A stretch of DNA of 64,000 nt from Vicinamibacterales bacterium (GCA_965200895.1 CBDAVM010000002.1:741028-805027); one strand, 5' to 3'; shown: positions 7,466-50,659, numbered from the stretch's first letter. The notes: generated by a model from the sequence alone, not told the origin. A program made the numbers and translations.

Positions 7466-8623
7466 ATGTCCACAATCCGTTTCTGTCTGCTGCTCGTCAT
7501 CGGCCTGGGCCTGGCCGTCGCCGGCGCCCGGTCGGCGGCCAACTCGGAGGCGACCACCGGCGTCACGCCAGAGTTCCAGCACATCAACAAGCTGGCGTTC
7601 GGGCCCGAAGGCGTCCTCTTCGCGGCCGACGCCCAGGAGGTGTCCATCACCGCCCTGCATCTCGGCGAGGAGATGGCCGGCGGGGTGCCCGGAACGCAGG
7701 ACGTCCCCGCGATCGATCGGAAGGTCGCCGCCCTGCTCGGCATCGACGCCGCCAACCTGCTGATCACCGACATGGTGGTCGACCCGCGGACGCGCAACAC
7801 CTGGCTCTCGGTGATGCGCGGGCTCGGCGCCGGGGCGGTGCCGGTCCTCCTGCGCGTGGACGGCGCGGGCGAGATGGAGGTCGTCTCCCTCGACGAGGTC
7901 CGCTACACGCGCATCGGGGTGCCCAATCCGCCGCCGGCCGAGACGCCGCTGGTGCTCGCCGGCGGACGGGAGATCCCCATCGCCAACTACCCCGACCAGG
8001 TCGACCCCGCGGGGCTGATCGGCGTGCAGACCATCACCCACATGGCCTTCATCGACGGCAATCTCTTCGTCTCGGGCCTGTCGAACGAGGAGTTCGCGTC
8101 CAAGATGCGCGTCATCCCGTATCCGTTCCGGGTGGCGGACGCGGGGACGAGCGTCGAGATCTACCACGGCTCGCACGGCCAGCTCGAGACGTTCTCGCCC
8201 GTGTTCACGTTCGTGCCGTACGAGATTGACGGCGAGCCGTCGATCGTCGCCAGCTACCTGTGCACGCCGCTCGTGAAGTTCCCCATCGCGGCGCTCGAGC
8301 CGGGCAGCAAGATTCAGGGGACGACGATCGCCGAGTTCGGCAACCGCAACCGGCCCATCGACATGATCGTCTACGAGAAGGACGGGCAGGACTACATCCT
8401 GCTATCGAACAACCAGCGCGGGGTGATGAAGGTGCCGACGGAGCCGTTCGGCGCCGCCGACGCCATCGCCGACCCGATTCCCGATACGGCCGGCGTGCCG
8501 TTCGAGACCATCGAGTCGCTCGAAGGCGTGCGGCAGCTCGATCGGCTGGATGCCTCCCGGGCGATGCTGCTCGTCGACGCCGCCGGCGGCGGGCTGAACC
8601 TCGAAGCCGCCGCGCTGCCGTAG
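7466..8623 (+). CDS. secreted hypothetical protein
   Basis: ATG at 7466 preceded by GGAAGGAGA. Signal peptide MSTIRFCLLLVIGLGLAVAGARSA. Uninterrupted 385-aa frame. Confidence 0.65.
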   Translation: MSTIRFCLLLVIGLGLAVAGARSAANSEATTGVTPEFQHINKLAFGPEGVLFAADAQEVSITALHLGEEMAGGVPGTQDVPAIDRKVAALLGIDAANLLITDMVVDPRTRNTWLSVMRGLGAGAVPVLLRVDGAGEMEVVSLDEVRYTRIGVPNPPPAETPLVLAGGREIPIANYPDQVDPAGLIGVQTITHMAFIDGNLFVSGLSNEEFASKMRVIPYPFRVADAGTSVEIYHGSHGQLETFSPVFTFVPYEIDGEPSIVASYLCTPLVKFPIAALEPGSKIQGTTIAEFGNRNRPIDMIVYEKDGQDYILLSNNQRGVMKVPTEPFGAADAIADPIPDTAGVPFETIESLEGVRQLDRLDASRAMLLVDAAGGGLNLEAAALP

Positions 8624-8637: not shown

Positions 8638-9894
8638 ATGACGCAGGCGGCGAGGGCGGCCGCGGTGATGGCGGCGGCCCTCGCGTTCGCGGCCGGATGC
8701 TCGCAGACAAGCGGCCAGGCGCCGGAACGCGCCGCCGGCGCGCCGCGCATCCTGTTGGTCGCCTCACCCTCCGGGCAGCGGACCATTGACGTCGCGGGGC
8801 TGGCGGCCGCCGACCTCGCGCACCTCGAACGCACCGCCCTGTCGCGCGACGCGTGGCAGGCCATCCTGCGCGTCCAGGTCGCGCAGGCGGGTCCGGCCCC
8901 CGCGGAGCTGCCGCCGGTCCTCGGCGACTACGCCGTGCACGCCGGCGCGCTGCGCTTCACGCCGCGTTTTCCGTTCGACGCGGGTCAACGCTACGAGGTG
9001 GTGTTCGATCCGTCATCCCTCCCGTCCGCGCGCGGCGGTTCCGCGCCCACCCCGCCGCGCGCAATCCGCGCGACGGTCGAGGCGCCCGCGCCCGACCGCG
9101 AGCCGTCGACCCGCGTGGTCGCCGTCTACCCGACCGGCCCCGAGGTGCCGGAGAACCACCTCCGCCTGTACGTCGTCTTCTCGGCTCCGATGGGGCTGGG
9201 CGCGGGCGGCGCGCACGTCCGGCTGCTCGACGAGCGCGGGCAGCCGGTCGCCGACCCGTTCCTGCCGCTGGACGTCGACCTGTGGAACGCGGACCGCACG
9301 CGCTTCACCGTCCTCTACGACCCCGGGCGGGTCAAGCGCGGCATCCGGCCGAACGCCGAGCTGGGCCGCCCGCTGGCGGCGGAGCGCCGGTACACCCTGG
9401 TGATCGACGCCGACTGGCGCGACGCCGCCGGTCAGCGGCTGGCGCAGCCGTTCCGCCGGGAGTACCGGGTGGGTGCGCCCCGGGAGCGCGCCCTCGATCC
9501 CGACACCTGGCGCCTCGACCTCCCGGCCCACGGCACACGGGACCCTCTCGCGGTGCGCTTTCCGGTCCCGCTGGACTACGGCCTGTTGCAACGCGCGCTC
9601 CACGTAGCCACCGGGGAGGGCCGGCCGCTGGCCGGGGAGATTCGGGTGGAGCAGGGCGAGACGCGCTGGACGTTCACGCCGCGCGCGCCGTGGCGGCCGG
9701 GCGAGTACCAGCTCGTCGCGGCGGCGACCCTCGAGGATGCCGCCGGCAACCGCATCGGGCGGCCGTTCGAGGTCGACGCGGCCGAGGCCCGGAGCTCGGA
9801 ACACCCCCGCGGCGCCGTGGTGCCGTTCCGGATCGGCCAACCTCTCGCGCGAATCCGGCCCCGCGAATCGAGCCCGGACCCGAAGGGCGGGTAA
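8638..9894 (+). CDS. lipoprotein with bacterial Ig-like (SbsA/Big_5-type) domains
   Basis: ATG at 8638 and lipobox LAFAAGC. VVAVYPTGPEVPENHLRLYVVFSAPM is typical of SbsA-type Ig-like domains. Its last about 270 nt are duplicated at 23325-23610. Confidence 0.7.
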   Translation: MTQAARAAAVMAAALAFAAGCSQTSGQAPERAAGAPRILLVASPSGQRTIDVAGLAAADLAHLERTALSRDAWQAILRVQVAQAGPAPAELPPVLGDYAVHAGALRFTPRFPFDAGQRYEVVFDPSSLPSARGGSAPTPPRAIRATVEAPAPDREPSTRVVAVYPTGPEVPENHLRLYVVFSAPMGLGAGGAHVRLLDERGQPVADPFLPLDVDLWNADRTRFTVLYDPGRVKRGIRPNAELGRPLAAERRYTLVIDADWRDAAGQRLAQPFRREYRVGAPRERALDPDTWRLDLPAHGTRDPLAVRFPVPLDYGLLQRALHVATGEGRPLAGEIRVEQGETRWTFTPRAPWRPGEYQLVAAATLEDAAGNRIGRPFEVDAAEARSSEHPRGAVVPFRIGQPLARIRPRESSPDPKGG

Positions 9895-9912
9895 CGCGAC
9901 TCCCGCTTTTCG
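9627..9912 (+). repeat. direct repeat copy 1 (3' end of the lipoprotein gene plus 18 nt downstream)
   Basis: 286 bp aligning without gaps to 23325..23610, with about 6 mismatches counted by eye. Confidence 0.9.
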
Positions 9913-9959
9913 CGTGGTCGGCCTATCGGCCCCGTCCGACGGCGCGGGCGGCGGGTTTC

Positions 9960-10806
9960 GGTAGAATCACCGGCGACGGAAGACACCGCCCACGGAGGAG
10001 AAACGCGGCAAGATCCGCCTGCCGACGAGCACCTCTCCCAATAGGCCTCCGAGGCTCGTACGATGACTCTCCGGCCGCCGATTCGGCCGCCGTCCGGACG
10101 CCAAGTGAGATGGTCATAGGATCCGAACGTCAGACCACCCCCGACGTTCACCTCCAGTGCCTGGGTGAGGGCGCGCCGATACCTCAGCGTCGTCGTCCAG
10201 TGGCGGAAGTAGCTGCCCCCCGGTGCGAACGCCGTTACCGTAGTCGTACGACGACTTGTGCTCCCCGACTGTCATGGAACGGCGTATCGCCATCCCCCAC
10301 GAGTCACTCCACCACCCGGCGACGCCGACCTCGATGCTCGGCAAGAACGACATGTCGCCCTCTCGGAAGAGATACCCGCCGCCGAACAGCATCTCAAGCG
10401 CCTTGCGGGACTGTGGAGGCGCCGGCCGGGGCGTCGGGCTCTCCTGCCGCGCCATCACCTCGCCCCGGCGCTCCGACGCCCACGGCTGGAAGGGGATGCG
10501 GCCGTCGGGCGGGTCGATGACCATCGGCCTCGCGATGCGTCCCGGGCGCGGCGGCGCGGCGGGGTCCGGCTCGAAGGACCGGGAGAACGCGGCTCCCTGC
10601 CTGCGGTTGACGCCCTCCGCCGGCCGCCACGAGTCGTTGGCAGCGGTCTCCATCGGCTGGGACGCGCCGGGCAGGTAGTAGCCACGGAAGTCAGGGTCGC
10701 CCCACGGGGTGCGCGGCGGCTCGTAGTCGCCGTCCTGGCCCGCCGCCATGGGCGCCGTCAGGGCGACGAACAACGCCGCGCCGAAGGCTCGTCGAACGCT
10801 CATCAT
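9960..10806 (-). pseudogene. decayed chimeric gene: signal peptide plus N-terminal fragment of a secreted protein family, fused to a frameshifted beta-barrel-like remnant
   Basis: ATG at 10806 gives MMSVRRAFGAALFVALTAPMAAGQDGDYEPPRTPWGDPDFRG. After about 130 aa the frame reads GGGYLFREGDMSFLPSIEVGVAGWW. The sense then continues only after a frameshift at a G-run (about 10235) as YFRHWTTTLRYRRALTQALEVNVGGGLTFGSY. Confidence 0.5.
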
Positions 10807-11690
10807 CGTGCTCCCTCTCCCTGCTCGACCGCCATCTGCAGGAGATGGTCGACGCAGTCGTAGTCGAGTATCTGCAGCCCCTCGTCCATGCGGCGGTAGA
10901 GCGTCATGCGCATCGTCCACGGACGGGTGAACACGTTCGGGTCCTCGAGGGTGACCTCGTAGTCGATGTGGTACGGCGTGGTCGGGGTGTAGCGCTCGAC
11001 CACGTGCAGGGCGTCGCTGTGGAAGTTGCCGGCCGCGTCGAGCCAGGTGCGCCCGTTGAAGTGGGTGGTGTCGACCACCAGAGTGTCGCCCTCCCAGTGC
11101 CCCCGCGAGTCGCCCATCCAGAAGTCGTTGGGCAGGGGGTGCGGGCTGCCGTCGGTGTAGATGATGCGGACGGCGTGGGCGAACTCGTAGGTGACGACGA
11201 CGTGGTCGGGCGTCTGCAGGATGCGGAACGGAACGGCATGTAGGTGATGCGCGGCACCCCCGGCAGGAAGCACTGCCGCACGGGGTCTGCGGTGAGCCGG
11301 TTGGCGTGTTCTCCTGCTGCTGCTCGGCCGCCCACGGCTGGTAGGGAATCTCGCCGCCCACCACCACCCCGAGGCCGGCGGGAATGCCATCCTGGGCGTT
11401 GTGGGGACGGATGTCCCAGGCCGCCGAGTTCAGCACCTGCCAGAAGCCGCTCAGATCGGGGTAGCCCTCCGGGGTCCGGGGGCCGTCGTGGCCGGACGCG
11501 GCGGCGGCCGGGGTCTGCCCCGCCCCGGCCCCGGACGGCGAGGAGCCGGCCGAGGGCGCGGGAACGGCCGCCGCCGCAGCGGCAGCGGCAGGCGCCGGCG
11601 GGCCGGACAGCGCGTCGAGGTAGCCGACGACCTGCCGGACCTCGTCGTCGCTCAGCTCCCGGGTGGATGCGCGCCGAGCAGATCGACCCC
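10803..11690 (-). pseudogene. frameshifted gene of the same secreted family as 38528..39277, with a cytochrome-c-like C-terminal remnant upstream
   Basis: Sense is spread over three frames: LSDDEVRQVVGYLDALSG...GPRTPEGYPDLSGFWQ, then CFLPGVPRITYMPF, then FRILQTPDHVVVTYEF...GDSRGHWEGDTLVVDTTHFNGRTWLD...ERYT. Confidence 0.6.
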
Positions 11691-11699
11691 GAGGCGTGG

Positions 11700-13284
11700 T
11701 CCATACGCTGCGGCGGGCGAACGGCCAAGAGGACCTGTTCGCCAGCTTCAACGAGTACCGCCGCCCGGCCGCGCCGCCTTGGAGTGGTACGAGCATGCCG
11801 GCAACTGGTCTAACCGCCTGATCCACGCCGACGCGCGGCGCGCGATGGCCTCGCTGCTCGAACACGAACACCTCGGCGGCGCCGTCCAGATGGTCTACTT
11901 CGATCCGCCCTACGGCATGGACTTCGACGCCCGCTACGGCAACGACAACATCCAGCGGCGGGCGTTCGTCGACACCTACGAGAAGGGCATCCACTCGTAC
12001 CTGGACGGCATCCGCCAGACCGCTCTGCTCGCCCGCGAGCTGCTGAGCGAGTCGGGCAGCCTGTTCATGCAGATCGGCGACGTGAACGTCCACCGCTGCG
12101 CGATAGTGCTCGACGAGGTGTTCGGGCCCGAGAACCGGGTCAGCACGATCACGTTCCCGACCACCGGCGGCGGCAGCAGCAGCAGGTCCATCGCCCAGTG
12201 TGCCGACTACATCCTGTGGTATGCGAAGAACCGCGACGAGATGGCGTTCCAGGCGCTCTACGAGGAGCAAGACATCGAAACTTGGTGCGATAGCAACGCA
12301 ACCTACACAGGGAGGAGACTTCCCCGACGGAACGCGCCGTGCCCTCAAGACTGAGGAACGCCGCGATCCGAAACGGAACATCCCGGACGGGACCGTTGTT
12401 CTCTGGTGCAGGGCCGGTTGCTCTCCCAGGGACCCTCCAAGGGTGAACAGGGCCAGCCGTTCACCTGGAACGCATCCGGTTCGGTCCCGATGGACTCGAA
12501 AACCAGCAGTGGAGAGTTGACCGCAAGGTCTCGACACACTCGCAAGTGCCGATAGACTCTGGACGAACGTATCCGAGACCAAGACGGCGAACGCCAACAA
12601 GCTTCGCCTTCGCGTCCTCCGATCCGAGACGCCGGGGAAGCGCCTCAACAACCTCTGGGAGAACAGATCTCGCCCAGCGACAAGCGCTACCCCGTGCAGA
12701 CCGGCGACCTCGCCATCCAGCGCTGCATGCTGATGACCACGCGGCCCGGCGACCTCGTGCTCGACCCGACCTGCGGCAGCGGCACCACACCCGTCGTAGC
12801 GGAGACGTGGGGCCGGCGCTGGATCGCCGTCGACGGCTCGCGCGAAAGCCTCGCCGTCGCGCGTGAGCGCATCCTCGTCCGCGACTACCCGGCGCACCTG
12901 CTCGTCGGCAGCGCTGTCGGATTCGCCAAGGAGAACGCGCTGCGCGAAGCGGCCGGACAGGAACCGCTGGCCGAGAGGCCCGCCGGCAGCGAACGCGACC
13001 CCGCCACGGGCCTCGTCGTCGAACGCATGCCCTACGTCAGCGCCGCGACCCTTGCCTACAAGGATCGCCGCGACAAGCGGGCGAACCGCGACATCACCTG
13101 GTTCGTCGACCGCCCTGTCGGCGGCAAGAAGAATGGCCGCATCGCCAGCCGCTTCACCGTCGAGACCGAACACCTTGAACAGTACCACAGCCCCGACGAA
13201 CTGCTCCGTCACTGGCGAGGCCGACTTCGTGCCTGCCGACAGCATCCGTACCCGCCGTCCCGCCGTCCCGCATCACCGGTGTAG
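11700..13284 (+). pseudogene. N6-adenine/N4-cytosine DNA methyltransferase (beta-class order: DPPY first, then AdoMet motif), heavily frameshifted and truncated
   Basis: Motifs LEWYEHAGNWSNRLIHADA, VYFDPPYG and LVLDPTCGSGTTPVVAETWGRRWIAVD. The central region (12300-12700) reads sensibly only by switching frames at least 3 times and has in-frame stops. There is also a 5' frameshift near 11770. Confidence 0.75.
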
Positions 13285-13812
13285 AATCACGTCAAGGGAG
13301 ACATGCACGACATGGCCGACAACACTGCGCCCGCCGCCGAGCACGCTGACAGCCCCGCGAAGCCGAGACTCTCGGCCGACGCCAAGTGGATCGTCGCCAC
13401 CGGCGTGGCCCTTGGACTCCTGCTGATTACCCTCATCAGCACGATGCTCCTGCAGAACGCCACCATCAACGCCCGGATCGACGACACCAACAACAACGTG
13501 CGCGGATTGCAGACCGAGATCCGCGAACGCCACGCAGACACACAGACCGACATCCGCGAACTCCGCGGCCTGCTGCTCCAGCTGCTCGAACGGTCCGCAC
13601 CAGCCAACCCGGTCAACTGAACACCCTGTTGCGCCCCGGCGCCGTCGGGCGCCGCCCGCGAATCAAACGCCGTCAGCCGCGTGCGCCTGCCCCGTTCCGG
13701 GCGTGGAATCTTGTACAGTGCGTCGTGATCAACCGCCGGTTGAAGCAGGATCATCCGCGGGAAAGAAACGGACACGACGCCGTAAGCCATTGTGTTTACA
13801 GGACTTACGTCA
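13246..13812 (+). repeat. inverted-repeat module, left copy
   Basis: Homologous in reverse complement to 24059..24684. Shared strings include ccgtacccgccgtcccgcc..catcaccggtgtagaatcacgtcaagggagacatgcacgacatggccgac and ttgaagcaggatcatccg..tgtgtttacaggacttacgtca. Confidence 0.85.
13303..13620 (+). CDS. small single-TM protein with coiled-coil-like DIRELR repeats (paralog of 24255..24626)
   Basis: GGGAGA RBS before the ATG. N-terminus MHDMADNTAPAAEHAD, TM segment WIVATGVALGLLLITLISTML, then heptad-like IRERHADTQTDIRELRGLLLQLLER. It is conserved as a protein in the second copy. Confidence 0.6.
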   Translation: MHDMADNTAPAAEHADSPAKPRLSADAKWIVATGVALGLLLITLISTMLLQNATINARIDDTNNNVRGLQTEIRERHADTQTDIRELRGLLLQLLERSAPANPVN

Positions 13813-15321
13813 AGGTCAGACGAAACACTGAGTCATGGCGATGGGCAAGAAACCTGCGGCGCGGCAGGCGTCGCCGATGTGGGTGAGCACGGCGGACCTT
13901 CCGACAAGCCCTGGACATCCCTTCTTCGAGCGGCTGAACCGGCTGCTGGACGACTTCGGATTCGACGCCTTCGTGGAGGGGCTTTGCGCGCCGTTCTACG
14001 CGGAGCGGTTGGGCCGTCCGAGCCTGCGTCCTGGTCGGTATTTTCGCTTGCTGCTGATCGGCTTCTTCGAGGGTCTGTCTTCGGAGCGTGGGATTGCGTG
14101 GCGTGTTTCGGATTCTCTGAGTCTTCGGGCGTTTCTGGACCTGGATCCGACCGATGCGGTTCCGGAACACTCGACGCTGTCGCGCACGCGTCGGCGTATC
14201 GACGACGAGACGCACGCTGCGGTTTTCACGTGGGTTCTGTCCCGTCTGTCGGATTCGGGTCTTGTGGAGGGGAAGACGGTCGGGATTGACGCGACGACGC
14301 TTGAGGCGAACGCGGCGCTGCGGAGCATCGAGCGTCGGGACACTGGCGAATCGCACGAGGCGTTCCTGCGTCGGCTGGCGGAGGCATCGGGTATTCCGAC
14401 GCCGACTCGTGCGGAGTTGGGGCGCTTCGACCGTTCTCGGAAGGACCGGAAGACGTCGAACCAGGAATGGCGTTCTCCGCAGGATCCTGACGCGAAGGTG
14501 GCGAAGATGAAGGACGGTCGTACGCACCTGGCGCACAAGACCGAACAGGCGGTGGTGGACCTGGAGACGGGCGCCATCGTGGCGGTGACGGTGCAGGATG
14601 CGTCTGCGGGCGACACGGCGACACTGCCTTTGACGGCGACATTGGCTGCCGAGCAGGTGGAGGCGGTTCGGCCGGACGGTGGGGGTGTTGAGGAGATTGT
14701 GGCCGACAAGGGCTACCACAGCGACGCGACGCGGGTTGCGCTCGACGAGATTGGGGTTCGCAGCTACATTTCGGAGCCGTCGCGTGGTCGTCGCCGCTGG
14801 CGGGACAAGAAGACGGGCGCGACGCCGCCGGAGAAGCGGGCTGCGCAGCGTGCGTTGTATGGGAACCGTCGTCGCAATCGCGGCGAGCGCGGTCGTCGTC
14901 TCCACCGCCGGCGCGGAGAGTTGGTGGAGCGGCCATTCGCGCACCAGTATGAGACGGGTGGTCTGCGGCGGGTGTGGGTGCGCGGTCATGGGAACGTGCG
15001 CAAGCGTGTGCTCATTCAGGCGGCGGGCTGCAATCTCGGGCTGCTGCTGCGCCGTCTGACGGGCGTCGGCACGCCCCGGAGCCTGCAGGGGCGGGCTTGT
15101 TCGGCGATTTGGCGTCTGATCGGGCGTCTGATCGACCACTACGGGCGTCTGACACGCGTTTGGGCGTCGGTCTGGACGCCGATGGCGCTCGGCGACTCGA
15201 TCGCGCATCGCCGAGTTGCCTGAACACGCCGGCTCAGCAAGGGACTTCTTCCACGGGCTGCAAGGCGGCCAGCACGGCCAGCCCCGCGGCGAGCATCCGA
15301 TGGTTCGAATTCTCCTCCTGA
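13812..15321 (+). mobile_element. IS5/IS1182-family insertion sequence (boundaries approximate)
   Basis: Homology of the inverted-repeat module stops at about 13812-13830, immediately before the transposase gene. The right side abuts the IS21-like element. I could not identify terminal inverted repeats. Confidence 0.5.
13835..15223 (+). CDS. IS5/IS1182-family DDE transposase
   Basis: 462 aa. GRPSLRPGRYFRLLLIGFFEGLSSERGIAWRVSDSLSLRAFL, EHSTLSRTRRRI, GIDATTLEANAA, ADKGYHS and ERPFAH match the DDE_Tnp_1 / IS1182 pattern. Confidence 0.85.
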   Translation: MAMGKKPAARQASPMWVSTADLPTSPGHPFFERLNRLLDDFGFDAFVEGLCAPFYAERLGRPSLRPGRYFRLLLIGFFEGLSSERGIAWRVSDSLSLRAFLDLDPTDAVPEHSTLSRTRRRIDDETHAAVFTWVLSRLSDSGLVEGKTVGIDATTLEANAALRSIERRDTGESHEAFLRRLAEASGIPTPTRAELGRFDRSRKDRKTSNQEWRSPQDPDAKVAKMKDGRTHLAHKTEQAVVDLETGAIVAVTVQDASAGDTATLPLTATLAAEQVEAVRPDGGGVEEIVADKGYHSDATRVALDEIGVRSYISEPSRGRRRWRDKKTGATPPEKRAAQRALYGNRRRNRGERGRRLHRRRGELVERPFAHQYETGGLRRVWVRGHGNVRKRVLIQAAGCNLGLLLRRLTGVGTPRSLQGRACSAIWRLIGRLIDHYGRLTRVWASVWTPMALGDSIAHRRVA

Positions 15322-15507
15322 TGTGTGTCAATGGCAACCGAAAACTGCACACTTTTGGCAACTGAAAACTGCACACTTTCAGCGAGGCCGGCGCGGTCGG
15401 ATCTGACGTTCTCCCGTTGGTGTCCACCGCGCGTTTCGGGTCGGACGTAGGGAGCGGAGCGACCGGAGTCCGGCCCGAAACGCGTCGCGAGACCGTCGGC
15501 CTGGTGG

Positions 15508-16305
15508 TCACGTCGCGACTCCCTCGCGGCGCTTGTCTGCCGCGGCCCGCAGCCACTCCTGCTGTTCCCGCAGCCGGTAGCTGTTGCCGCGGATGTTGAC
15601 CACGTGGCAGTGGTGCAACAGCCGGTCGATGAGCGCTGCTGCCATCACCTCGTCGCCAAGCACGCTGCCCCATTCCTCGAAGCCCTTGTTCGAGGTCAGC
15701 ACCGTCGACGCCCGCTCGTGCCGGGCGTTGATCAACTGGAAGAAGAGCACGGCGCCGTCCTGCGTCACCGGCAGGTAGCCGATCTCGTCGACGACCAACA
15801 ACGCCGGATGCGTCAGCACCCGCAGCCGCCGGGTCAACTCGCCTGCGGCCCTCGCTTCGCTGAGCGAGTTGATCAGGCTCGCCAGCGTGCCGTAGTAGAC
15901 GCGGCGGCCGGCCTCGGCGGCCGTCACCGCGAGGCTGATCGCCAAGTGCGTCTTGCCTACGCCGGGCGGACCCAGCAGGATCACGTTCTCGGCGCGGTCA
16001 ACGAATCCCAGCTCGTGCAGGCTCTCGACCTGCTCGCGCTTGACGCTCGGCTGGAAGCTGAAGTCGAACTGCGCCAGCGTCTTGACGGCCGGTAGACGCG
16101 AGGAGCGCATCGCCGCCTGCAGCCGCCGGTTGTTGCGCAACGCGATCTGCGCGTTGCGCATCAACTCGATCGCTTCGCCGGCGGTCACCGCGCCGCTGTC
16201 GACCTGGGCCAACACGCCATCGACCGCTTCAAGCGCGCCCGGCATCTTCAGGTCCGCCAGCATCGCCCGCAGCCGGTCGCGCCGGTTGCCTTCCGCGGCC
16301 TTCAT
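15508..16305 (-). CDS. istB: IS21-family helper ATPase IstB
   Basis: Walker A GPPGVGKTHL and Walker B LLVVDEIGY. The ATG at 16305 overlaps the istA stop. Confidence 0.9.
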   Translation of the reverse strand: MKAAEGNRRDRLRAMLADLKMPGALEAVDGVLAQVDSGAVTAGEAIELMRNAQIALRNNRRLQAAMRSSRLPAVKTLAQFDFSFQPSVKREQVESLHELGFVDRAENVILLGPPGVGKTHLAISLAVTAAEAGRRVYYGTLASLINSLSEARAAGELTRRLRVLTHPALLVVDEIGYLPVTQDGAVLFFQLINARHERASTVLTSNKGFEEWGSVLGDEVMAAALIDRLLHHCHVVNIRGNSYRLREQQEWLRAAADKRREGVAT

Positions 16306-17324
16306 CGCGCCGCCTCCGCGTAGACGCGCAACGCGCGGCGCTCGACCTTGACCGTCTCGGCCACGAGCCGCGGGACCGGCGCCGGTGTGGAGCGCACGCC
16401 GACGCGCCGGTAGGGACACGCCGCCAGGGGCCGCAGCTCCTCACGCTCGGCCCGCGTGAAGCGGTCCACCGGACGCTCGCCCGTCGTGCCGTGCCGGCGC
16501 ACGTTGGCCGTCTGCTCCAGCCAGTGCGCTGCCTGCGCGTTGAGGTCGTCGTCGTTGAGGAACGTGCGGCCGTAGAAGAAGCCGTCCCGGATATAGCGGA
16601 TCGGCCGCTCCACCTTGCCCTTCGTCTGCGCTCGATACGGCCGGCAGGCCCGCGGATGAAACCCCCAGTGCGCGGCAAAGCGCAGAAACTCCGCGTTGAG
16701 CACCAACTCGCCGCCGCCCACCCGGCCGTCCGACAGCACCACCGCACGCATCTGGTCGAACAACAGCTCGCGGGGCACGCCGCCGAAGCGCGCGAACGCG
16801 CGCTCCAGCCCCGCGGTCAGCACCGCCATCGTCTGCCGCTGGTAGAAGTGCAGCCACAGCAGCCGTGAGTGGCTCAGAACCACCACCAGGGCATGCCGGC
16901 GGCCCCAGGGTAGCGCGAACGTCCCGAAGTCCACCGGGCCCTGATGTCCCGGCGGTGTCTCGAACCGCACTACCCGCTCGGCCGCCGGACGTGGGCGCAC
17001 CGTCCGGACGTAGTCCCGCACGCGGCTGTAGCCGCCAGGGTAGCCGGACGCCCGAATTTCGTCGAACAAGCGCTTGGCCGACAACTCCGGGAACTCCTCC
17101 AGGCGCGCCGTAATGATCCCCATGTAGGGCGCCAGCTTCTGCGGCGCCGCTGGCCGCGGCGCGTAGCGCGAGTGGCCCGACGACAGGTCGCGGTCGAGCT
17201 GGCCCGTCTCAACCCACGCGTGGATCGTGCGCCGGCTCACTCCGAAGCGTCTCGCCAACGCCGCCTTCGAGACGCCCCGCTCCAGGTAGTGCTTCAGCAG
17301 CATCCTCGTCTCCCATCCATGCAT
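16302..17324 (-). CDS. istA: IS21-family transposase IstA
   Basis: N-terminal HTH (GVSKAALARRFGVSRRTIHAWV). Integrase-core motifs VDFGTF, RAVVLSD and RPYRAQTKGKVER. Confidence 0.85.
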   Translation of the reverse strand: MHGWETRMLLKHYLERGVSKAALARRFGVSRRTIHAWVETGQLDRDLSSGHSRYAPRPAAPQKLAPYMGIITARLEEFPELSAKRLFDEIRASGYPGGYSRVRDYVRTVRPRPAAERVVRFETPPGHQGPVDFGTFALPWGRRHALVVVLSHSRLLWLHFYQRQTMAVLTAGLERAFARFGGVPRELLFDQMRAVVLSDGRVGGGELVLNAEFLRFAAHWGFHPRACRPYRAQTKGKVERPIRYIRDGFFYGRTFLNDDDLNAQAAHWLEQTANVRRHGTTGERPVDRFTRAEREELRPLAACPYRRVGVRSTPAPVPRLVAETVKVERRALRVYAEAAR

Positions 17325-17593
17325 CTGCGCCCCGCCCCCTCGCTGTGGGATTCCCCAACATCGTGGGACGCAAACCGGCTCCCGACCACCAGCAATGTGT
17401 GCAGTTTTCGGTTGCCATAAATGGGAGATTTACACTTGCCGCCAACAATGTGACGCGAGCCCGATTACAGCCCGCCTGCCCGACCTCCGCGCATCCCGGC
17501 TCCCCCGTGAATCCCGCGCCGCGGCCGCCCGAGACGGCGCCGCCCCCCGCTCGTGACACCGCCGCCAAACGCGCGGCCACAGGCGTTTGACGG

Positions 17594-17624
17594 CACACTG
17601 CGACTGAATCTCAGTCGCAGTGTG
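17594..17624. promoter_or_regulatory. perfect 14-bp palindrome with a 3-nt loop (cacactgcgactga atc tcagtcgcagtgtg), upstream of the GD-repeat gene
   Basis: Read directly. It is preceded by TTGACG at 17586-17591 and lies about 125 nt upstream of the ATG at 17748. No U-tract follows. Confidence 0.5.
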
Positions 17625-17747
17625 TTGCCCTCGTGTCTTACCGAACTTGAATCTCACTTGCAGGTTTGGGCCTGTTCCGCCTTTCGTGATAAACGTCGAG
17701 TCCACCAGGGAGGTGGCGCCTGTCACACCCCAATTGCGGAGTATCTG

Positions 17748-19241
<1,494 letters not shown>

Positions 19242-19427
19242 CCGCTACGCCGTGCCGACGCAGGCCGCGATCTGTCGTTCGTCCTCGCACTCCACCCGCG
19301 ACCGGCGCTATCGAACTCGCCGACACGCCGCGCACGGCTGCCGCCTGGCGAAACGGCGTGGCGGCTTCGCCGGCTCTTACTTCGTGTGTTGCCCGGAAAC
19401 GGGCGAAATCGGGGAAGGAACGACAGC

Positions 19428-20075
19428 ATGAGCATCTTTCGGCGCCAAACCGCAAGTGCCGAGGAAAACACCTCTTTTCCGGCAACCACCGATGTGACGT
19501 CTCGCTTTACCCGCATCGCCGAGAAGGTCGACGTCGAGCCGTTTCGCTCCGAGTTGGACGCTGCGTCCGATCTCTGGCTCGCCGACACCAGTCGCCAGCG
19601 CAAGGTCCGTTGCCAACGCGACACCCTCAACATATTTCTTCGTGTCGCCAGAAAGCCTCTACCGGCCGGGGCGACCAACGCCAACGACGTGCACGAGAGC
19701 CGCAACGCGCGGTTCGCGGGCCGTTTTCCGCACGCGTTGAAGTTCTGCCAGAAAATCGCCTCTCTGCGGGAAGGCGAGCTCGGACGCGCCGCCCTCGTCG
19801 CCCTCCAGCCGCGCGGCTGGGTCCGCCCCCATGTCGACGCCGGTGCGTACTACCGCATACGCGACCGCTTCCACCTCGTGCTGCACAGCCCTGGGGGCAG
19901 TCCCCTGACCTGCGGAGACGAGACCATCGTGATGCGAACTGGGGAACTCTGGGCTTTCGACAACAAGACCAGGCACGACGCCCGGAACCCGACCGACGAA
20001 CCCCGCGTACATCTGATATTCGATGTGCTACCCGGCGACGGCCGGGGGTATTACGTCCTGCCTCCGGCGGACTGA
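19428..20075 (+). CDS. aspartyl/asparaginyl beta-hydroxylase-family Fe(II)/2-oxoglutarate oxygenase (cupin)
   Basis: ATG at 19428 after GGGGAAGGAA. LQPRGWVRPHVDAG...YRIRDRFHLVLHSP...GELWAFDNKTRHDARNPTDEPRVHLIFD matches the H-x-D...H facial triad and flanking pattern of this family (LpxO/AspH-type). Confidence 0.75.
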   Translation: MSIFRRQTASAEENTSFPATTDVTSRFTRIAEKVDVEPFRSELDAASDLWLADTSRQRKVRCQRDTLNIFLRVARKPLPAGATNANDVHESRNARFAGRFPHALKFCQKIASLREGELGRAALVALQPRGWVRPHVDAGAYYRIRDRFHLVLHSPGGSPLTCGDETIVMRTGELWAFDNKTRHDARNPTDEPRVHLIFDVLPGDGRGYYVLPPAD

Positions 20076-21610
20076 AGTCCGAGCCCGGAGATCTTCACCA
20101 CCGCCACCAGAGCATGGGCCGCCGAATCGATCCGCACCGTGTTGTCGTACACCTCCGTGCGGAGCGCGCCCATGACCCGGGCCTTCCTGGCGATGTAGAA
20201 CGCGTCCCATTCGTTACGAAACTGCAACTGTCGCAACGACCTCAGGCCCCGCGCGATCGCGCGCTCGAAAGCGGCCGACCGCCTCTCGTCCCCGACCGTC
20301 CGGGCGACCCTCACCGCATCCACGAGCCCCTCCAGATACACGCCCGTCGAAGCCGCGTGCGGCGGTCCGAACTCCGGCCGCCGTGGATCGTAGAAGCGCC
20401 CGCGCAGATCGTCCGTCAGCCCGTCCCACTGCTGCAGCGACAGGAGCCCGTCGTTCATCTCGAGCACGAAGTCCGCGAGCTCCCGGCGCCCCGTCTGATC
20501 GAGCATGGAGGCGCAAGCCTGCGTGTGCCATGGCACGAACGCCGGGTTCCTGGCCTCCAGGTGCCGAGCCCGGCAACGCGTGAAGGTCGCCGCCCAACGC
20601 TCGAGGGTGGGCGCCCACGCCGTTCTGCGCCGTACCGCCTCCGCCCAGAACAACATCGCCTCTCCGGCATAGAAGTTCCAGTTCTGGCCATCGCGCGCAG
20701 CGGGAAAGAAGAAAGTGCGGAATCCGCGTTCCTCGTCCGCCAGGGACTCCACTCCGGCCGCCAGCATTTCCAGCTCCCCTGTGAACTCTTCCGCTCCCGG
20801 GGTCTCCAGAATCGCGAGACCGGCCAACGCGGCCGCGCCGAGCTTCGCGCCCGTACGTTCCACGATGGCGCCGCGCCCGCCCCCGATGGGCCGAAAGTAC
20901 CGCGACAAATTGGCGCGCAGGTTACGCAGGGCCGCTTCGCGCACGACTGCGCCGCCCCGCAACCGCGCCCAGCGCGCAAGGGCGAGGGTTGCGAGAAGAC
21001 GCCGGATCGCATTGTCGGAAGGGGCGTTCACGCCACGGCTCGGCCAGTACTTGTAGGGCAGCGAACCGTCGGCCGACTGGTTGCGAAGCATCCATCCCGC
21101 GATGCCCGCCGCCAAGTCTCCGGCGCGGTCCTCGCCGGCGGCTTCCGACGCAGGCACCAGCGAGCTGCCGCGAAACAGCTTCGTGACCTCGGCGCCGCCC
21201 CTGCTAGTCAGCAGGAACTGCCGGGCAGAAAAGACACGCAGACCGCCGTCCGCGGCGAAGTCGGCGACGTCGGCTTTCCGCCGCGCCAGGAACTTCGACA
21301 GCGCCCGCGGAAACCCCAGGTTCGCGGCGAGCATCCGGGTCGGAGCGAGGCGGAGAATCTCTCCCCGGTATTCGATTTCCATGCCGGCCACGCCCCGCGC
21401 GCGATTACAGAACACGCGACTGACCCGTTCGGGCGCGACGGCCCGATAGTCACTCGATACGCAGACCTCCACGACGTCGCCCTCGCGAGCGCCGAGCATG
21501 TCTGGCAGCCGTTGGAGCGAAGCGTCGGCAATCCACCCGCGGCGTTGAGCAACGCCGTCCCGCCGCAGGCAGTACCAGGTCGACTCGTGCGGTCCGGGAT
21601 CGGCTTCCAC
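20051..21610 (-). CDS. hypothetical protein; C-terminal about 350 aa look like an alpha/alpha-toroid (prenyltransferase/terpene-cyclase- or six-hairpin-like) repeat domain
   Basis: 519-aa uninterrupted ORF. Motifs SADGSLPYKYWP, NWNFYAGEAMLFW and GVYLEGLVDA. No LanC Zn ligands were recognised. Convergent with the hydroxylase gene, overlapping it by 25 nt. Confidence 0.55.
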   Translation of the reverse strand: MEADPGPHESTWYCLRRDGVAQRRGWIADASLQRLPDMLGAREGDVVEVCVSSDYRAVAPERVSRVFCNRARGVAGMEIEYRGEILRLAPTRMLAANLGFPRALSKFLARRKADVADFAADGGLRVFSARQFLLTSRGGAEVTKLFRGSSLVPASEAAGEDRAGDLAAGIAGWMLRNQSADGSLPYKYWPSRGVNAPSDNAIRRLLATLALARWARLRGGAVVREAALRNLRANLSRYFRPIGGGRGAIVERTGAKLGAAALAGLAILETPGAEEFTGELEMLAAGVESLADEERGFRTFFFPAARDGQNWNFYAGEAMLFWAEAVRRRTAWAPTLERWAATFTRCRARHLEARNPAFVPWHTQACASMLDQTGRRELADFVLEMNDGLLSLQQWDGLTDDLRGRFYDPRRPEFGPPHAASTGVYLEGLVDAVRVARTVGDERRSAAFERAIARGLRSLRQLQFRNEWDAFYIARKARVMGALRTEVYDNTVRIDSAAHALVAVVKISGLGLQSAGGRT

Positions 21611-21770
21611 TGTTGTCGCGAAGGCACCGCTGCGCGGCAGGCGTTCATTCAGCCCGACAACGTCTCTGCACTCGCGCCGGGCATGTTACCGCGGACGGAC
21701 ACGGGCGGACCATTGCCCGCTCATGCCTGTGGCGCCCCCGTCCACATGGCCCGGCCACCGGAGGAACGCC

Positions 21771-22739
21771 ATGACACATCCAAGCCTGCGCTTCGTGGTC
21801 GGCGGCATGCTCGCCGCCACTCTGGGCTGCGGCCAGGACGGCAATCCTGTCGCGCCGACGACGCCCACGACACCGACCAACCAGGCGCCGCAGGCGTCCG
21901 CCATCATTCCTGACCAGACAGTGGCCGCAGGCGGCGACCTGCAGCTCGACGTGCAGGGTCACTTCGCAGATCCCGACGGCGACCTTCTGGCCTTCCGGGC
22001 GGCCTCCAGCGACCCGGACGTCGCGACGGCGAGCGTTGCCGGGAGCATCGTCACCATCTGGGCCATGAGTCCCGGCATGGCCGAGATCACGGTCACCGCG
22101 GCCGACCCCGCCGGCCTGACCGCCTCGCAGCACTTCACCGCGACCACCGAACCACCGACCAACCGCGCCCCCCGGGTTGCCGCCCCCATACTCGGCCGGA
22201 CGCTGAAGCTGAACCAGAGCGAGAAGGCGACCATCGACCTGAACAACTACTTCACCGATCCAGACGGCGACCCCCTGACCTTCGAGGTGTCCTCGGGCGA
22301 CAACGCCGTCGCGACGGCGAGCGTCTCGAACGGCACGGCCACGCTGCTGGCGGTCGCCCTCGGCACGACGGCCGTCACCGTCGCCGCCCGCGATCTCGAA
22401 GGCCTGAGCGCCACCCACGCGTTCTCGGTCACCGTCGAACAGGGAACGCTCTCCGCGGAACTCGAAGTCACGAACTGTCACGCCGAAGGCGTGGGATTCG
22501 TCGACGTCACGGTGGAAGGTACGGTCCGAGCGGTCACGCCCTTGTCATCCGCGCGCGTCACCGCGTACATGGACACCCAGACGCTGGGCGAGCAGGTCCT
22601 CGGCGACCTCGGGACCGGCGAGACCCGGGCCTTCCTGATTCGAGGCTCGGCGACGGTCACCGCGTCTTCTCGCTGCCGAGTCGAGCTCTCGGCCGCCGGG
22701 AGCAGCATGACCGCCGTCGCGACGGTGTCGTTTCGTTGA
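21771..22739 (+). CDS. lipoprotein with two Ig-like/cadherin-like repeats carrying DPDGD motifs
   Basis: GGAGGA RBS, ATG at 21771, lipobox LAATLGC. Two about 95-aa repeats (HFADPDGDLLAFRAASSDPDVATASV.., YFTDPDGDPLTFEVSSGDNAVATASV..). Confidence 0.75.
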   Translation: MTHPSLRFVVGGMLAATLGCGQDGNPVAPTTPTTPTNQAPQASAIIPDQTVAAGGDLQLDVQGHFADPDGDLLAFRAASSDPDVATASVAGSIVTIWAMSPGMAEITVTAADPAGLTASQHFTATTEPPTNRAPRVAAPILGRTLKLNQSEKATIDLNNYFTDPDGDPLTFEVSSGDNAVATASVSNGTATLLAVALGTTAVTVAARDLEGLSATHAFSVTVEQGTLSAELEVTNCHAEGVGFVDVTVEGTVRAVTPLSSARVTAYMDTQTLGEQVLGDLGTGETRAFLIRGSATVTASSRCRVELSAAGSSMTAVATVSFR

Positions 22740-22866
22740 GGGAACGCTTGTGGGGGCTGCGGGGCCGAGGAGGGCGGGACGAAGCGACGCGCGCGGCCCG
22801 CGACCGCGCCGCCGCGGGGTTCGAAGGGCCGCCCGAACCCCGCCGGCCGCCATGCATCGACGACGG

Positions 22867-23320
22867 CTACAGCGGCCGGTCCGGATTGATGATCGACCGC
22901 CACATGTGGGCGACGGGCTGTTGTCGTACCCCAGCCCCTCCTTCGGCTGCTTGAACTGCCGGCCGATGACGTCGGTGAACTCCTCGATGCGGATCTTGCG
23001 CTGGTTCTCGTCGAACACACTGATCGTTGACGGTGACGAGCCGCGCCTCCATGTAGTAGCGATGGTTCCGCGCGAACTCGTAGTCCTTCTTGATGTACTC
23101 GTCCGGCTCGTAGTCCACCCCGAAGATGCGGTTGTACATGTCGGGATACGCGTAGCCGACCGACGAGTCGGGGAAGAAGCGCAGCGCCTGGTGATACTTG
23201 ATGCCCCAGCTCACGCGCTCGTCCACGTACGGGGCGAAGAGCTGCGCGCCCCAGTAACCGTGGTCCGCCTTGATCAGATTCTGGGTCACGTCGTGCAGCG
23301 GGCATGCGAACACCGTGCGC
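22867..23320 (-). pseudogene. 5'-truncated, doubly frameshifted remnant of an unidentified gene
   Basis: Reads LIKADHGYWGAQLFAPYVDERVSWGIKYHQALRFFPDSSVGYAYPDMYNRIFGVDYEPDEYIKKDYEFARNHRYYMEARLVTVND. It then makes sense in another frame (VFDENQRKIRIEEFTDVIGRQFKQPKEGLGYDN) and returns to the first frame (PVAHMWRSIINPDRPL-stop). It ends abruptly at the repeat boundary. Confidence 0.55.
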
Positions 23321-23324
23321 TCGG

Positions 23325-23610
23325 GCTGGCCGGGGAGATCCGGGTGGAGCAGGGCGAGACGCGCTGGACGTTCACGCCGCGTGCGCCGTGGCGGCCGGGC
23401 GAGTACCAGCTCGTCGCGGCAGCGACCCTCGAGGATGTCGCCGGCAACCGCATCGGGCGGCCGTTCGAGGTCGACGCGGCCGAGGCCCGGAGCTCGGAAC
23501 GCCCCCGCGGCACCGTGGTGCCGTTCCGGATCGGCCAACCTCTCGCGCGAATCCGGCCCCGCGAATCGAGCCCGGACCCGAAGGGCGGGTAACGCGACTC
23601 CCGCTTTTCG
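23325..23610 (+). repeat. direct repeat copy 2 (orphan 3' end of the lipoprotein gene)
   Basis: See 9627..9912. It encodes GEIRVEQGETRWTFTPRAPWRPGEYQLVAAATLEDVAGNRIGRPFEVD...PKGG-stop with no upstream gene body. Confidence 0.9.
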
Positions 23611-23774
23611 AGTAGTCGTCCCACCGGTTCTGCCGATGGGTGCAAGAGGACAGTCTGGAGCTCGACCCCGGCGCCCCCGCGGCGCTCCAACGTGGACCGG
23701 ATATCGGGTCCGTGACGGTTCGTCCGGCCACCGTTACGCGGTCAATCCGGTGACGACCAGCAGCAGGAGCATCG

Positions 23775-24041
23775 TCACCAGTCCGGCGGCAGGTCCTCGA
23801 CCGTCCAGCACTCCCGGGGGAGGTCCCCCACCAGATCGTAGGCGCCCAGTCGGTAGCCGGCCGGCACCAGTCGTGGCGAGGGCAGATAGTTCGCCATCTC
23901 CAGCATCGCGACGCCCGCCGTCTCGGCGAAACAGAGTACGGGAGTGCCCGGTTCGTTCCAACGCCCACCACCCCGGTAGCTGGCTCCAAGGCCCCGAAAG
24001 TCTTCGAGATGGTCGGCATGGCAGATCCGGAACAGGCGCAT
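23775..24041 (-). pseudogene. RES-domain toxin, 3'-truncated (88 aa; lacks the Ser-containing C-terminal half)
   Basis: MRLFRICHADHLEDFRGLGASYRGGGRWNEPGTPVLCFAETAGVAMLEMANYL..LPPDW-stop. The conserved Arg (GGRWN) and Glu (MLE) are present. The VPS motif region is absent. Confidence 0.7.
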
Positions 24042-24058
24042 CAGGGGTTCCTCTGACT

Positions 24059-24684
24059 GTGACGTAAGTCCTGTAAACACAATGGTTTACGGCGTCGGAT
24101 CTGTTTCGTTCCCACGGATGATCCTGCTTCAACCGACGGTTGATCACGACGCACTGTACAAGATCGCACCCGTGGAACGGGCGGGCGCAGGCGGCTGACG
24201 GCGCTTGATCTCGCGCGCGGGCAGCGGGTTGCGCCCGCGGTGCAACTGGGTGGTTCAGTCGGCCGGTGTGGCCGGGGCGGTGCGTTCGAGGAGCTGGAGC
24301 AGCAGGCTGCGCATCTCACGGATCTCGGTGCGGAGATCGCGGATGTCGGTGTGCATCTCGGTGCGGAGCTCGCGCATGTCGGTTTGCATTTGGTCCATGC
24401 GGGCGTTGACGCTCGTGTTGGTGTCGTCGATCCGGGCGTTGACGGTCGCATACTGCTGCATCAGCATGGCGTTCTGCTGGAACATCATCCCGACGAGCGT
24501 GAGTTGAAGCAGGCCGATGCCGATGACGGTGGTGACGATCCACTTGGCGTCGATCGAGAGTCTCGGCTTCGCGGGTCTGTCTGCGTGCTCGGCGGCCGGC
24601 GCGGTGGTGTCGGCCATGTCGTGCATGTCTCCCTTGACGTGATTCTACACCGGTGATGCGGGACGGGCGGGACGGCGGGTACGG
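24059..24684 (-). repeat. inverted-repeat module, right copy
   Basis: Reverse-complement homolog of 13246..13812, diverged and with indels (it encodes a 123-aa versus a 105-aa paralog). Confidence 0.85.
24255..24626 (-). CDS. small single-TM coiled-coil protein (paralog of 13303..13620)
   Basis: MHDMADTTAPAAEHADRPAKPRLSIDAKWIV.. with repeated MRELRTEMHTDIRDLRTEIREMRSLLLQLLER. Same RBS context as the left copy. Confidence 0.6.
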   Translation of the reverse strand: MHDMADTTAPAAEHADRPAKPRLSIDAKWIVTTVIGIGLLQLTLVGMMFQQNAMLMQQYATVNARIDDTNTSVNARMDQMQTDMRELRTEMHTDIRDLRTEIREMRSLLLQLLERTAPATPAD

Positions 24685-38059: not shown

Positions 38060-38488
38060 CTAGTCGGCGGGCTGGATGGGACCGCCGTCCGCCCGCAGGA
38101 TCTCCGCGCAGCAGATGCCGTACGTGCCGGGGGCGCGGGACGGCTGGCCGACCACGCGGATCCGATCGCCCACGCGGATGGTCTGCGGCGTCCAGCCGCG
38201 GCGGCTCATCGAGACGGCGGTGCCCATCTCGACCTCCCAATTGATCACGCCGCCGTTCCCGTCCTCACCGTCGAGGAACAGGAACGAGTGCGGGTTGCGG
38301 AAAAGAAACCGGGTGACGACACCCTCCGCCGTGACGCTCTTCGTGTTGTCATAGAACGGGGCGCTTGCATGATGCGCGTCCGCCGGCGCACCGGTCCACA
38401 CCGCCAACGCCGCGATCACCACTGCGGCCGCCGCCGTCCAGAGCAGGATTCTCACCGAACTACCCTCCTTCCGCCCGCTTCCAGCCAT
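38060..38488 (-). CDS. DUF6152-like small exported protein
   Basis: Signal/TM ILLWTAAAAVVIAALAVWTGAPADAHH, then HHASAPFYD..VTAEGVVTRFLFRNPHSFLFLD..WEVEMG. The start is uncertain. Confidence 0.6.
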   Translation of the reverse strand: MAGSGRKEGSSVRILLWTAAAAVVIAALAVWTGAPADAHHASAPFYDNTKSVTAEGVVTRFLFRNPHSFLFLDGEDGNGGVINWEVEMGTAVSMSRRGWTPQTIRVGDRIRVVGQPSRAPGTYGICCAEILRADGGPIQPAD

Positions 38489-38527
38489 CTCGTATCCTTT
38501 CGAGGCGCGCCGCATTCGAACGGCCGC

Positions 38528-39277: not shown

Positions 39278-39339
39278 GGTCCTGCCTCTCGTCTTCGGAG
39301 ACGGCGCGGCACGCGACCCGCGCCCGGCTACGGGCGATT

Positions 39340-40563: not shown

Positions 40564-40806
40564 GAGTTCAACAGCCCGTGGCGACAGCCCCCGCGGCATT
40601 TCGAGCGACGATCCCGCCTGGACTGCGTTGTTCGTGGGTCACAGATGCCCGATTTGCGCCCTCCTCACGCCTTGTCAGGCGGGCGCCTCGCCACTCCCGG
40701 TGCTCGCGAGGATTCCACCACGGACTGCCAACGCAGCCTGCCCGGAACCCATGCCGGGTCGGCAATCATCGCGACACGCGTCCACCTCGCTGTCCCGGCC
40801 CGGCGC

Positions 40807-42537: not shown

Positions 42538-42683
42538 TGCGTAAGCCTCCCGGATTGCGTAAGCCTCCCGGAGAGAGCATAACAGCCCGCAGCAAGAAGC
42601 CCGGTGACGTTTCGGACGGCGATGATCCCGGTGTGACACGGACGCCCCAACGGAAGCTACAATTGATGCTACGATCAAGGGTC

Positions 42684-45181: not shown

Positions 45182-45200
45182 CGCTCTGTATGATACAGCG

Positions 45201-46349: not shown

Positions 46350-46404
46350 GGAAAGCGGCTCGCTGATCGGCTACTCCACGCACCGCAACCCGGATTTCGG
46401 CTCG

Positions 46405-47532: not shown

Positions 47533-47543
47533 TACCGATCCCG

Positions 47544-47864: not shown

Positions 47865-47867
47865 CCG

Positions 47868-48164: not shown

Positions 48165-48171
48165 AGACGAC

Positions 48172-50655: not shown

Positions 50656-50659
50656 ATCC

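Follow-up and report, generated by a model that had tools for sequence, protein, structure and literature searches.

Recombination that combines a homologous crossover at one end with an illegitimate joint at the other, known as homology-facilitated illegitimate recombination (HFIR), is familiar from Acinetobacter, Pseudomonas stutzeri and Streptococcus pneumoniae. Two further processes leave a repeated gene end behind: islands and integrative elements occupy the 3' end of a tRNA gene or a protein gene, where att direct repeats flank them, and microhomology-mediated tandem duplications show a head-to-tail joint of distal to proximal sequence with few shared bases, the direct repeats flanking them being RecA-unstable. 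The present analysis concerns a window of 64,000 nucleotides (the whole stretch of DNA analysed) from a Vicinamibacterales bacterium (GCA_965200895.1, CBDAVM010000002.1:741028-805027), in which the 3' end of a lipoprotein gene recurs downstream as a direct repeat around 13.4 kb of partly decayed DNA. This repeat appears to be the by-product of one illegitimate recombination event and not an attachment site. HFIR, the described process that it resembles most closely, has been reported in three naturally competent species and in Escherichia coli conjugation (PMC3240628), and has been proposed as the origin of additive displacement arrays (PMC5361080).

The repeat pair and its native surroundings

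The source is a metagenome-assembled contig whose host belongs to the Vicinamibacterales (Acidobacteriota), with a G+C content of 70% over the whole window. The ungapped direct repeat of 286 nt consists of copy A (9627-9912) and copy B (23325-23610), which are identical at 280 of 286 positions, differ at 9642, 9684, 9723, 9740, 9803 and 9814, and are spaced 13,698 nt start to start, with 13,412 nt between them. Copy A comprises the final 268 nt, stop codon included, of the lipoprotein gene at 8638-9894 and a further 18 nt on its 3' side. The left edge of the repeat is sharp, with three of the 20 preceding bases matching, and the right edge fades through 20 bases with 13 matches into background. 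Apart from arrays inside single genes, no other dispersed direct repeat of at least 60 nt occurs in the 64-kb window, which places this pair far beyond chance. The sequence-only reading had thus described the repeat accurately, including its gapless alignment with about six mismatches (exactly six are counted), the position of copy B without a gene body beside a truncated minus-strand pseudogene, and the presence between the copies of decayed genes, two insertion sequence (IS) elements and a Gly-Asp (GD)-repeat/hydroxylase cluster.

Evidence on origin lies at the left edge of copy B. The adjoining pseudogene, identified by homologue search as an HD-domain phosphohydrolase, lacks about 105 N-terminal residues, being cut at approximately residue 105 of 259 (full-length relatives measure 228-259 aa); two frameshifts in it, separated by about 100 nt, compensate each other. 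Read along the plus strand, the junction in the window runs from ...GCGCTCGG through GCTGGCCGG into GGAGATCC..., where the closest HD orthologue (L068) reads ...GCGCTCGGGCTGGCCGGTCTCGAC... and the lipoprotein gene reads ...GGCCGGCCGCTGGCCGGGGAGATT...; the shared GCTGGCCGG is framed by CTCGG and TCTCG in the HD orthologue and by GGCC and GGAG in the lipoprotein gene. Among HD orthologues, the motif is preserved at nine of nine positions in L068, eight of nine in L070 and six of nine in L069. A joint placed within a short GC-rich microhomology of two unrelated genes argues for illegitimate recombination rather than the action of a site-specific recombinase, and the join between the HD fragment and copy B is best read as illegitimate recombination within at most 9 bp of such microhomology, not as an att crossover. 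The product is ordered as the full gene, its own native neighbourhood, the truncated HD gene and a second 3' end of the first gene.

That the neighbourhood is native emerges from comparison with related loci and contigs (designated here by L numbers). In several relatives, the lipoprotein gene is followed, after a cassette where one is present, by genes for a pyrroloquinoline quinone (PQQ) dehydrogenase, a DUF6152 protein, a 316-aa protein, a cytochrome and a 329-aa protein, and window positions 10416-11667 match the 316/cytochrome stretch of relatives at 88-90% nucleotide identity in identical orientation. Contig L068, reached through the HD fragment, is collinear with 10488-23333 at 74-90% nucleotide identity and carries, in order, the 316 and cytochrome genes, a 328 gene, the GD protein, the hydroxylase, a 485-aa protein, a Big_9 protein and HD. 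The full order is present on a single contig of one relative genome, represented by L028 and L070 (overlap 3675/3675), which runs from the lipoprotein gene by way of PQQ, DUF6152, 316, cytochrome and 329 to GD, hydroxylase, a 489-aa protein, Big_9, HD and an aminotransferase, with the HD gene about 19.5 kb from the lipoprotein stop codon. Because the interval is collinear with relatives, its DNA is native, contradicting the description of it as an accessory segment; the 13.4 kb between the copies represents the normal neighbourhood of the lipoprotein gene, shortened by deletion and interrupted by three insertions.

These results bear directly on the first origin that had been proposed, namely an integrative element that entered the lipoprotein 3' end with a replacement 3' end, its attL and attR surviving as the repeats after later loss of the integrase. 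Such an element would account for a segment with IS elements and pseudogenes bracketed by direct repeats of a gene 3' end, for a GC content slightly below that of the flanks (68.1% versus 70-71%) and for the existence of conspecific contigs with a single repeat; copy A moreover completes the target gene, a feature not diagnostic alone. Nevertheless, the explanation is extremely improbable: the bracketed DNA is native and collinear with relatives at core-gene identity, the outer flanks of both repeats are native as well, on its left, copy B begins at a microhomology joint of at most 9 shared bp that lies within an unrelated truncated gene, neither an element nor a second repeat occupies the site in any of the 39 relatives, and the single-repeat contigs combine copy-A polymorphisms with the flank of copy B, as expected of recombinants and not of a pristine site. 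Neither a recombinase, nor foreign cargo, nor crossover-type repeat edges are present. No integrase, excisionase or tRNA was found; in agreement with the earlier statement that no integrase survives, Pfam scans of the open reading frames (ORFs) at 9.9-24.7 kb returned IS transposases alone (rve of IstA and DDE_Tnp_1), with neither a Phage_integrase nor a Recombinase domain; besides the ORFs of that region, the scans covered most other large ORFs but not all frames of the window. Almost the whole interval between the copies is accounted for by features other than an integrase. No second lipoprotein 3' end was detected in the 39 relative loci or in a self-comparison of L023. Two further candidates were rejected: a tRNA as integration target, with ARAGORN finding no tRNA gene in the whole 64-kb window, and a composite transposon, the IS1182-like and IS21 elements being different, single-copy and internal.

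Two flanks, six polymorphisms and the origin of copy B

The lipoprotein gene, with 1806 homologues, is the second member of a conserved pair with a 385-aa gene at 7466-8623. The pair is kept in at least 39 Vicinamibacterales loci, close lipoprotein orthologues at 84-89% amino-acid identity occur in many complete Vicinamibacterales genomes, and Abhydrolase_1 and Abhydrolase_10 genes are conserved upstream with the 385-aa gene alongside the lipoprotein gene in relatives. Downstream of the pair, cassettes with DUF3667, cyclase, aconitase or amidohydrolase genes are alternatives among the 39 relatives, none of which carries both the DUF3667 and the cyclase cassette (0/39). According to Pfam, the cassettes that follow the lipoprotein gene in relatives consist of ordinary metabolic genes, and no integrase was found in them; the position behind the pair is a variable, integrase-free cassette site. 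Across loci L016-L054, from about 11150, the DNA directly 3' of the pair was seen to differ even between close relatives, the alternatives there being DUF3667, the cyclase, aconitase subunits with a deaminase, amidohydrolases, an AAA_22 protein, or PQQ directly.

Both repeat copies open into DNA of this kind. The flank of copy A (A flank, 9911-10002) matches the promoter and ribosome-binding region of the cyclase gene at 85-93% identity, a match that came from blastn against more relatives; the homology ends just 5' of the cyclase start codon, and the gene proper is missing. In relatives, this gene lies directly after the lipoprotein gene (L026) or after 4.5 kb of other genes (L023). A tblastn search of the first 525 nt of the A flank for remnants of PQQ or other genes gave noise only. 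The flank of copy B (B flank) is joined to its repeat in a single 470-nt high-scoring segment pair that aligns 23326-23780 to L051, with the 15 C-terminal residues of the DUF3667 protein 80% identical, and in L009/L053, L051 and L027 a DUF3667 gene stands behind the lipoprotein gene. The six differences between the copies, hereafter single-nucleotide polymorphisms (SNPs), are all transitions, three synonymous and three non-synonymous, and polarisation against the 39 relatives assigns the derived state to copy A at 9642, 9740 and 9803 and to copy B at 9684, 9723 and 9814. This 3:3 symmetry fits alleles that would have diverged in separate lineages better than it fits one decaying relic.

On these grounds, our tentative preference, short of a firm identification, is that two conspecific haplotypes of the variable locus were joined by HFIR. 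DNA of one haplotype would have entered a cell carrying the other; the conserved gene pair would have anchored homologous recombination at one end, and at the opposite end, where a break inside the HD-phosphohydrolase gene was joined to lipoprotein codon 330 at GCTGGCCGG, recombination would have been illegitimate, so that the outcome would have been additive rather than a replacement and the two parts of the product would derive from the two haplotypes. Joints of HFIR typically fall in about 3-10 nt of usually GC-rich microhomology, and GCTGGCCGG is of this type. Later decay of the locus would have proceeded through deletions, insertion of the IS21 and IS1182-like elements and acquisition of the methylase module. 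The 286-bp repeats may now serve as substrates for RecA-type deletion and gene conversion, and deletion between them would explain metagenome contigs with one hybrid repeat.

The main rival is a tandem duplication within one genome, in which microhomology-mediated unequal exchange between sister chromosomes, or template switching, connected the HD gene with the 3' end of the lipoprotein gene; roughly 14-20 kb would have been duplicated head to tail, the second unit later being cut to 286 nt plus flank and the first unit losing its original flank. A novel head-to-tail joint of distal to proximal sequence with microhomology is the classical signature of this process and is found here, where the HD gene meets lipoprotein codon 330, so that the joint is explained equally well; the DNA between the copies is all native and in native order, and further deletions or illegitimate joints are apparent at 10002/10003, about 10437, 11667 and about 23781, the last of these connecting the B flank to a RES-domain gene. 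However, duplicated units should open with the same flank, yet the similarity ends 18 nt after the stop codon, where the copies diverge into native cassettes that are alternatives among the 39 relatives. A copy B SNP only 15 nt from the left edge makes later allelic replacement of the second unit unlikely, and the derived changes are split 3:3 instead of being concentrated in the non-functional copy. We therefore regard this duplication as an unlikely, albeit serious, alternative. Of the two origins offered by the sequence-only reading, the integrative-element scar falls, and the duplication-type rearrangement stands in kind, in that a distal gene has been placed head to tail with the 3' end of a proximal one.

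Further evidence comes from metagenome contigs retrieved by exact look-up of the lipoprotein and the truncated RES protein, in the SRR339910xx short-read series and in low-coverage long-read contigs. Two contigs (L001, L002) match the window at 100% identity across the gene and on into the A flank. In others (L003-5, L011-14), the full gene is continuous with the B flank, copy A, with SNP pattern AAAAAA except in L012, passing into 467 nt of that flank free of mismatches. In L012, the SNP pattern AAAABB switches from A-type to B-type between SNP 4 and SNP 5 before entering the B flank. The crossovers that these patterns imply lie within the two longest stretches of identity, of 98 and 62 nt, as RecA-type deletion between the repeats predicts. 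Among short-read samples, three continue without a break from the gene to the A flank, six reach the B flank instead and two end at the repeat end. Each of the five RES-anchored contigs extends into the gene body, and the HD fragment is reached by none (0/5); four of the five are pure A-type, a pattern which argues that the single-repeat haplotype is real in those samples. A real single-repeat haplotype that would have arisen by RecA-type deletion between the repeats is supported but not proven. The search for an empty site that had been proposed thus succeeded to the extent that conspecific contigs with one repeat exist, but their repeat is hybrid, resembling deletion products or graph collapse and not the state before an integration; because copy-A SNPs are combined with the B flank, the single-repeat variant is not a pristine pre-insertion site. 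Recovery of the interval genes in short-read contigs does not inform on whether the interval is missing from those samples, since short contigs break at recurrent points, and upstream core genes are likewise recovered only on the source contig and one long-read contig.

One such breakpoint was noted beyond copy B, where five of five short-read contigs that reach the RES gene stop at 24077 and the long-read contig L015 starts at 24091. A GTAAAC-N6-GTTTAC palindrome lies at this point (24073-24091), and no 31-mer from there recurs in the window, which leaves no k-mer shared within the window as the cause; the contig ends may reflect another structural polymorphism or a repeat elsewhere in the genome.

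A further explanation is that two co-occurring strain haplotypes, one with the gene and the A flank and the other with the gene and the B flank, were threaded in series by the assembler. Short-read samples divided among A flank (3), B flank (6) and repeat end (2) are the pattern expected from separate haplotypes, the junction of the HD fragment with copy B is on no other contig, and possible long-read indel errors, in the form of compensating frameshifts, lie nearby. Against this, threading would require reads spanning from the HD gene to the lipoprotein 3' end, two sequences with only 9 bp in common, and a joint falling exactly in a 9-bp microhomology has by our own estimate a chance of about 1e-5 and is typical of illegitimate recombination in vivo. 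Moreover, copy B carries six transitions that are absent from the common short-read haplotype and was therefore not copied from it. It is very unlikely that an assembler or a ligation chimera produced the microhomology joint, and an assembly artefact as the source of the whole arrangement is quite improbable.

Several considerations weigh against the joining of two haplotypes by HFIR. We know of no natural competence or other route of DNA uptake in Vicinamibacterales, and no genome with a single copy, B-type SNPs and the B flank, as presumed for the second parent, was found, so that the step from donor to recipient is inferred. The symmetric polarisation stems from only six SNPs and is weak evidence. 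The microhomology is deduced from orthologues at about 90% identity, and the true overlap may amount to 7-9 bp; the junction itself is found only on the source contig and in no other data set. Finally, the single-repeat contigs could represent de Bruijn graph collapse, the patterns ABAAAA (L006) and AAAABB (L012) matching k=31 bubbles exactly.

Features of the interval and of the wider window

The features on which this account rests are collected in the table below. The 316-aa and cytochrome remnants are 88-90% identical at the nucleotide level to L008, L009, L019, L028, L051 and L068, and their order and orientation relative to the lipoprotein gene are as in those loci; the 329-aa gene, of which a remnant is left, follows the cytochrome gene in relatives. 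The first insertion does not occur in relatives at this point and pairs with 24041-24666 as an inverted repeat, and the flanks of the IS1182-like insertion are unrelated to one another. The cluster at 17553-22739 is collinear with L068 at 74-80% nucleotide and 68-84% amino-acid identity, and is also found in L070. No Pfam family was found for the HD fragment, the two small coiled-coil proteins cc and cc', the 482-aa protein or the chimeric ORF at 10114-10803.

Features of the repeat pair, the interval between the copies and the adjoining region
Feature	Position	Strand	Remarks
Lipoprotein gene	8638-9894	+	intact, 418 aa; lipobox signal; Big_5 Ig-like domain
Copy A	9627-9912	+	lipoprotein codons 330-418, stop codon and 18 nt downstream
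A flank	9911-10002	+	remnant of cyclase-gene upstream region and ribosome-binding site; 85% identity to L023 15690-15778, 93% to L026 5957-6014
316-aa gene remnant	10438-10803	-	N-terminal 123 aa; native
Cytochrome c gene	10806-11667	-	Cytochrome_CBB3 domain; frameshifted, lacking at least ~76 N-terminal residues; native
Insertion 1	11668-13831	+	frameshifted N6/N4 DNA methylase (Pfam PF01555) and cc' with downstream spacer
cc'	13303-13620	+	small membrane coiled-coil protein, within insertion 1
Insertion 2	13832-15263	+	IS1182/IS5-like transposase gene; DUF772 and DDE_Tnp_1
329-aa gene remnant	15264-15325	-	first codons and upstream region; 87-93% identity to L019 17125-17167 and L028 21021-21083
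Insertion 3	15331-17418	-	IS21-family element; istA 16302-17324, istB 15508-16305; 25-nt terminal inverted repeats
GD-repeat lipoprotein	17553-19241	+	native cluster 17553-22739
Asp/Asn beta-hydroxylase	19428-20075	+	native cluster
Conserved 482-aa protein	20051-21499	-	native cluster; no Pfam family
Big_9 lipoprotein	21771-22739	+	native cluster
HD-domain phosphohydrolase pseudogene	22810-23333	-	90% nucleotide identity to L068 5180-5703
Junction microhomology GCTGGCCGG	23325-23333		common to HD gene and lipoprotein gene (9627-9635)
Copy B	23325-23610	+	without gene body
B flank	23611-23781		native intergenic DNA and last 15 codons of DUF3667 gene (23737-23781, -); 77.6% identity to L009 11438-11560
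RES-domain gene	23775-24041	-	C-terminally truncated, 88 aa; profile positions 1-51 of 157
cc	24255-24626	-	paralogue of cc' (57% amino-acid identity); with 24041-24254 forms the second inverted-repeat arm

The two arms of the inverted repeat (13263-13831 and 24041-24666) are 80-88% identical, and each consists of a small membrane coiled-coil gene (cc' or cc) with a spacer. Near copy B, the arm precedes the truncated RES toxin gene at 23775-24041, and at the other arm the IS1182-like element starts exactly at the would-be RES start codon. On the minus strand at 10114-10803, the first 123 codons of the 316 gene continue without a frame change into about 100 aa of unrelated tail, for which no homologue was detected; this is either a chimeric ORF or the leftover of a further rearrangement. 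Frameshifts are found in the cytochrome and methylase genes (11231-11311, 12354-12556) and in the HD pseudogene (22880-23020), and some of them may be long-read indel errors rather than real decay.

In the GD-repeat lipoprotein, some 150 Gly-Asp dipeptides stand in succession, a poly-Asp tail is also present, and 198 nt are duplicated in tandem inside the gene at 17878-18273; the Asp-rich repeat of the protein may be modified by the neighbouring Asp/Asn beta-hydroxylase. Elsewhere in the window, a paralogous cluster of DUF6152, cytochrome c and PQQ dehydrogenase genes at 38060-42681 (minus strand), about 30% identical to the decayed one beside the lipoprotein gene, may compensate for the loss of its counterpart. 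A second patch of accessory appearance at 45000-53500 holds VWA and fn3 proteins, an AAA_16 ATPase, an HSDR_N fragment and an AbiEi/AbiEii-like pair (51340-52685).

Position of the locus among described systems

This is an ordinary kind of genome rearrangement in a little-studied phylum, and no new mechanism is implied. In its architecture, the locus behaves like a product of HFIR or of duplication that is secondarily unstable through its repeats. Its value is mainly corrective: a 3'-end repeat around IS-rich, decayed DNA mimics an immobilised island, and relatives reveal the enclosed material as rearranged native DNA. In addition, the locus documents, in a lineage of uncultured soil Acidobacteriota, a microhomology joint resolved in full and, beside a conserved gene pair, a hypervariable site for cassettes, together with possible population-level evidence for repeat-mediated deletion. 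A broader proposal, and a doubtful one, is that the 385-aa/lipoprotein pair acts as a recurrent recombination anchor for integrase-free cassette exchange in soil Vicinamibacterales, the locus being a captured additive intermediate of which parental and deletion haplotypes still segregate within a single natural population; if true, it would directly document gene flow of the HFIR type in a lineage of uncultured acidobacteria.

Islands in the 3' ends of genes share with the locus the direct repeats of such an end around a multi-kilobase segment and the existence of a single-repeat variant, but differ from it in that here there is no recombinase, the cargo is native, the junction is one of microhomology and the repeat far exceeds the identity blocks typical of att sites. 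Junctions of tandem duplications are alike in their head-to-tail joint with few identical bases; here, however, the second unit keeps only 286 nt and then passes into the other flank haplotype, so that simple duplication is insufficient. The orphan 3' fragments downstream of rhs and contact-dependent inhibition (CDI) toxin genes and the effector-immunity arrays of type VI secretion systems (T6SS) resemble the locus in presenting a full gene and, some distance beyond it, a partial 3' copy with a stretch of shared homology, and in that the repeated stretch supports later homologous deletion or switching (PMC5361080 and work cited there). Unlike those arrays, the locus has a single orphan and no toxin-immunity logic, and it is the constant 3' end with its stop codon that is duplicated, the variable part being the downstream cassette and not a toxin tip. 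Products of HFIR would agree with the locus in having one conserved anchor, here presumably the 385-aa/lipoprotein pair, with the other end at a short GC-rich microhomology and an additive outcome, and in the presumed divergence of donor and recipient by only a few per cent; they differ in that the process is here deduced from one natural product and in that the inserted DNA would be a haplotype of the homologous locus instead of foreign DNA.

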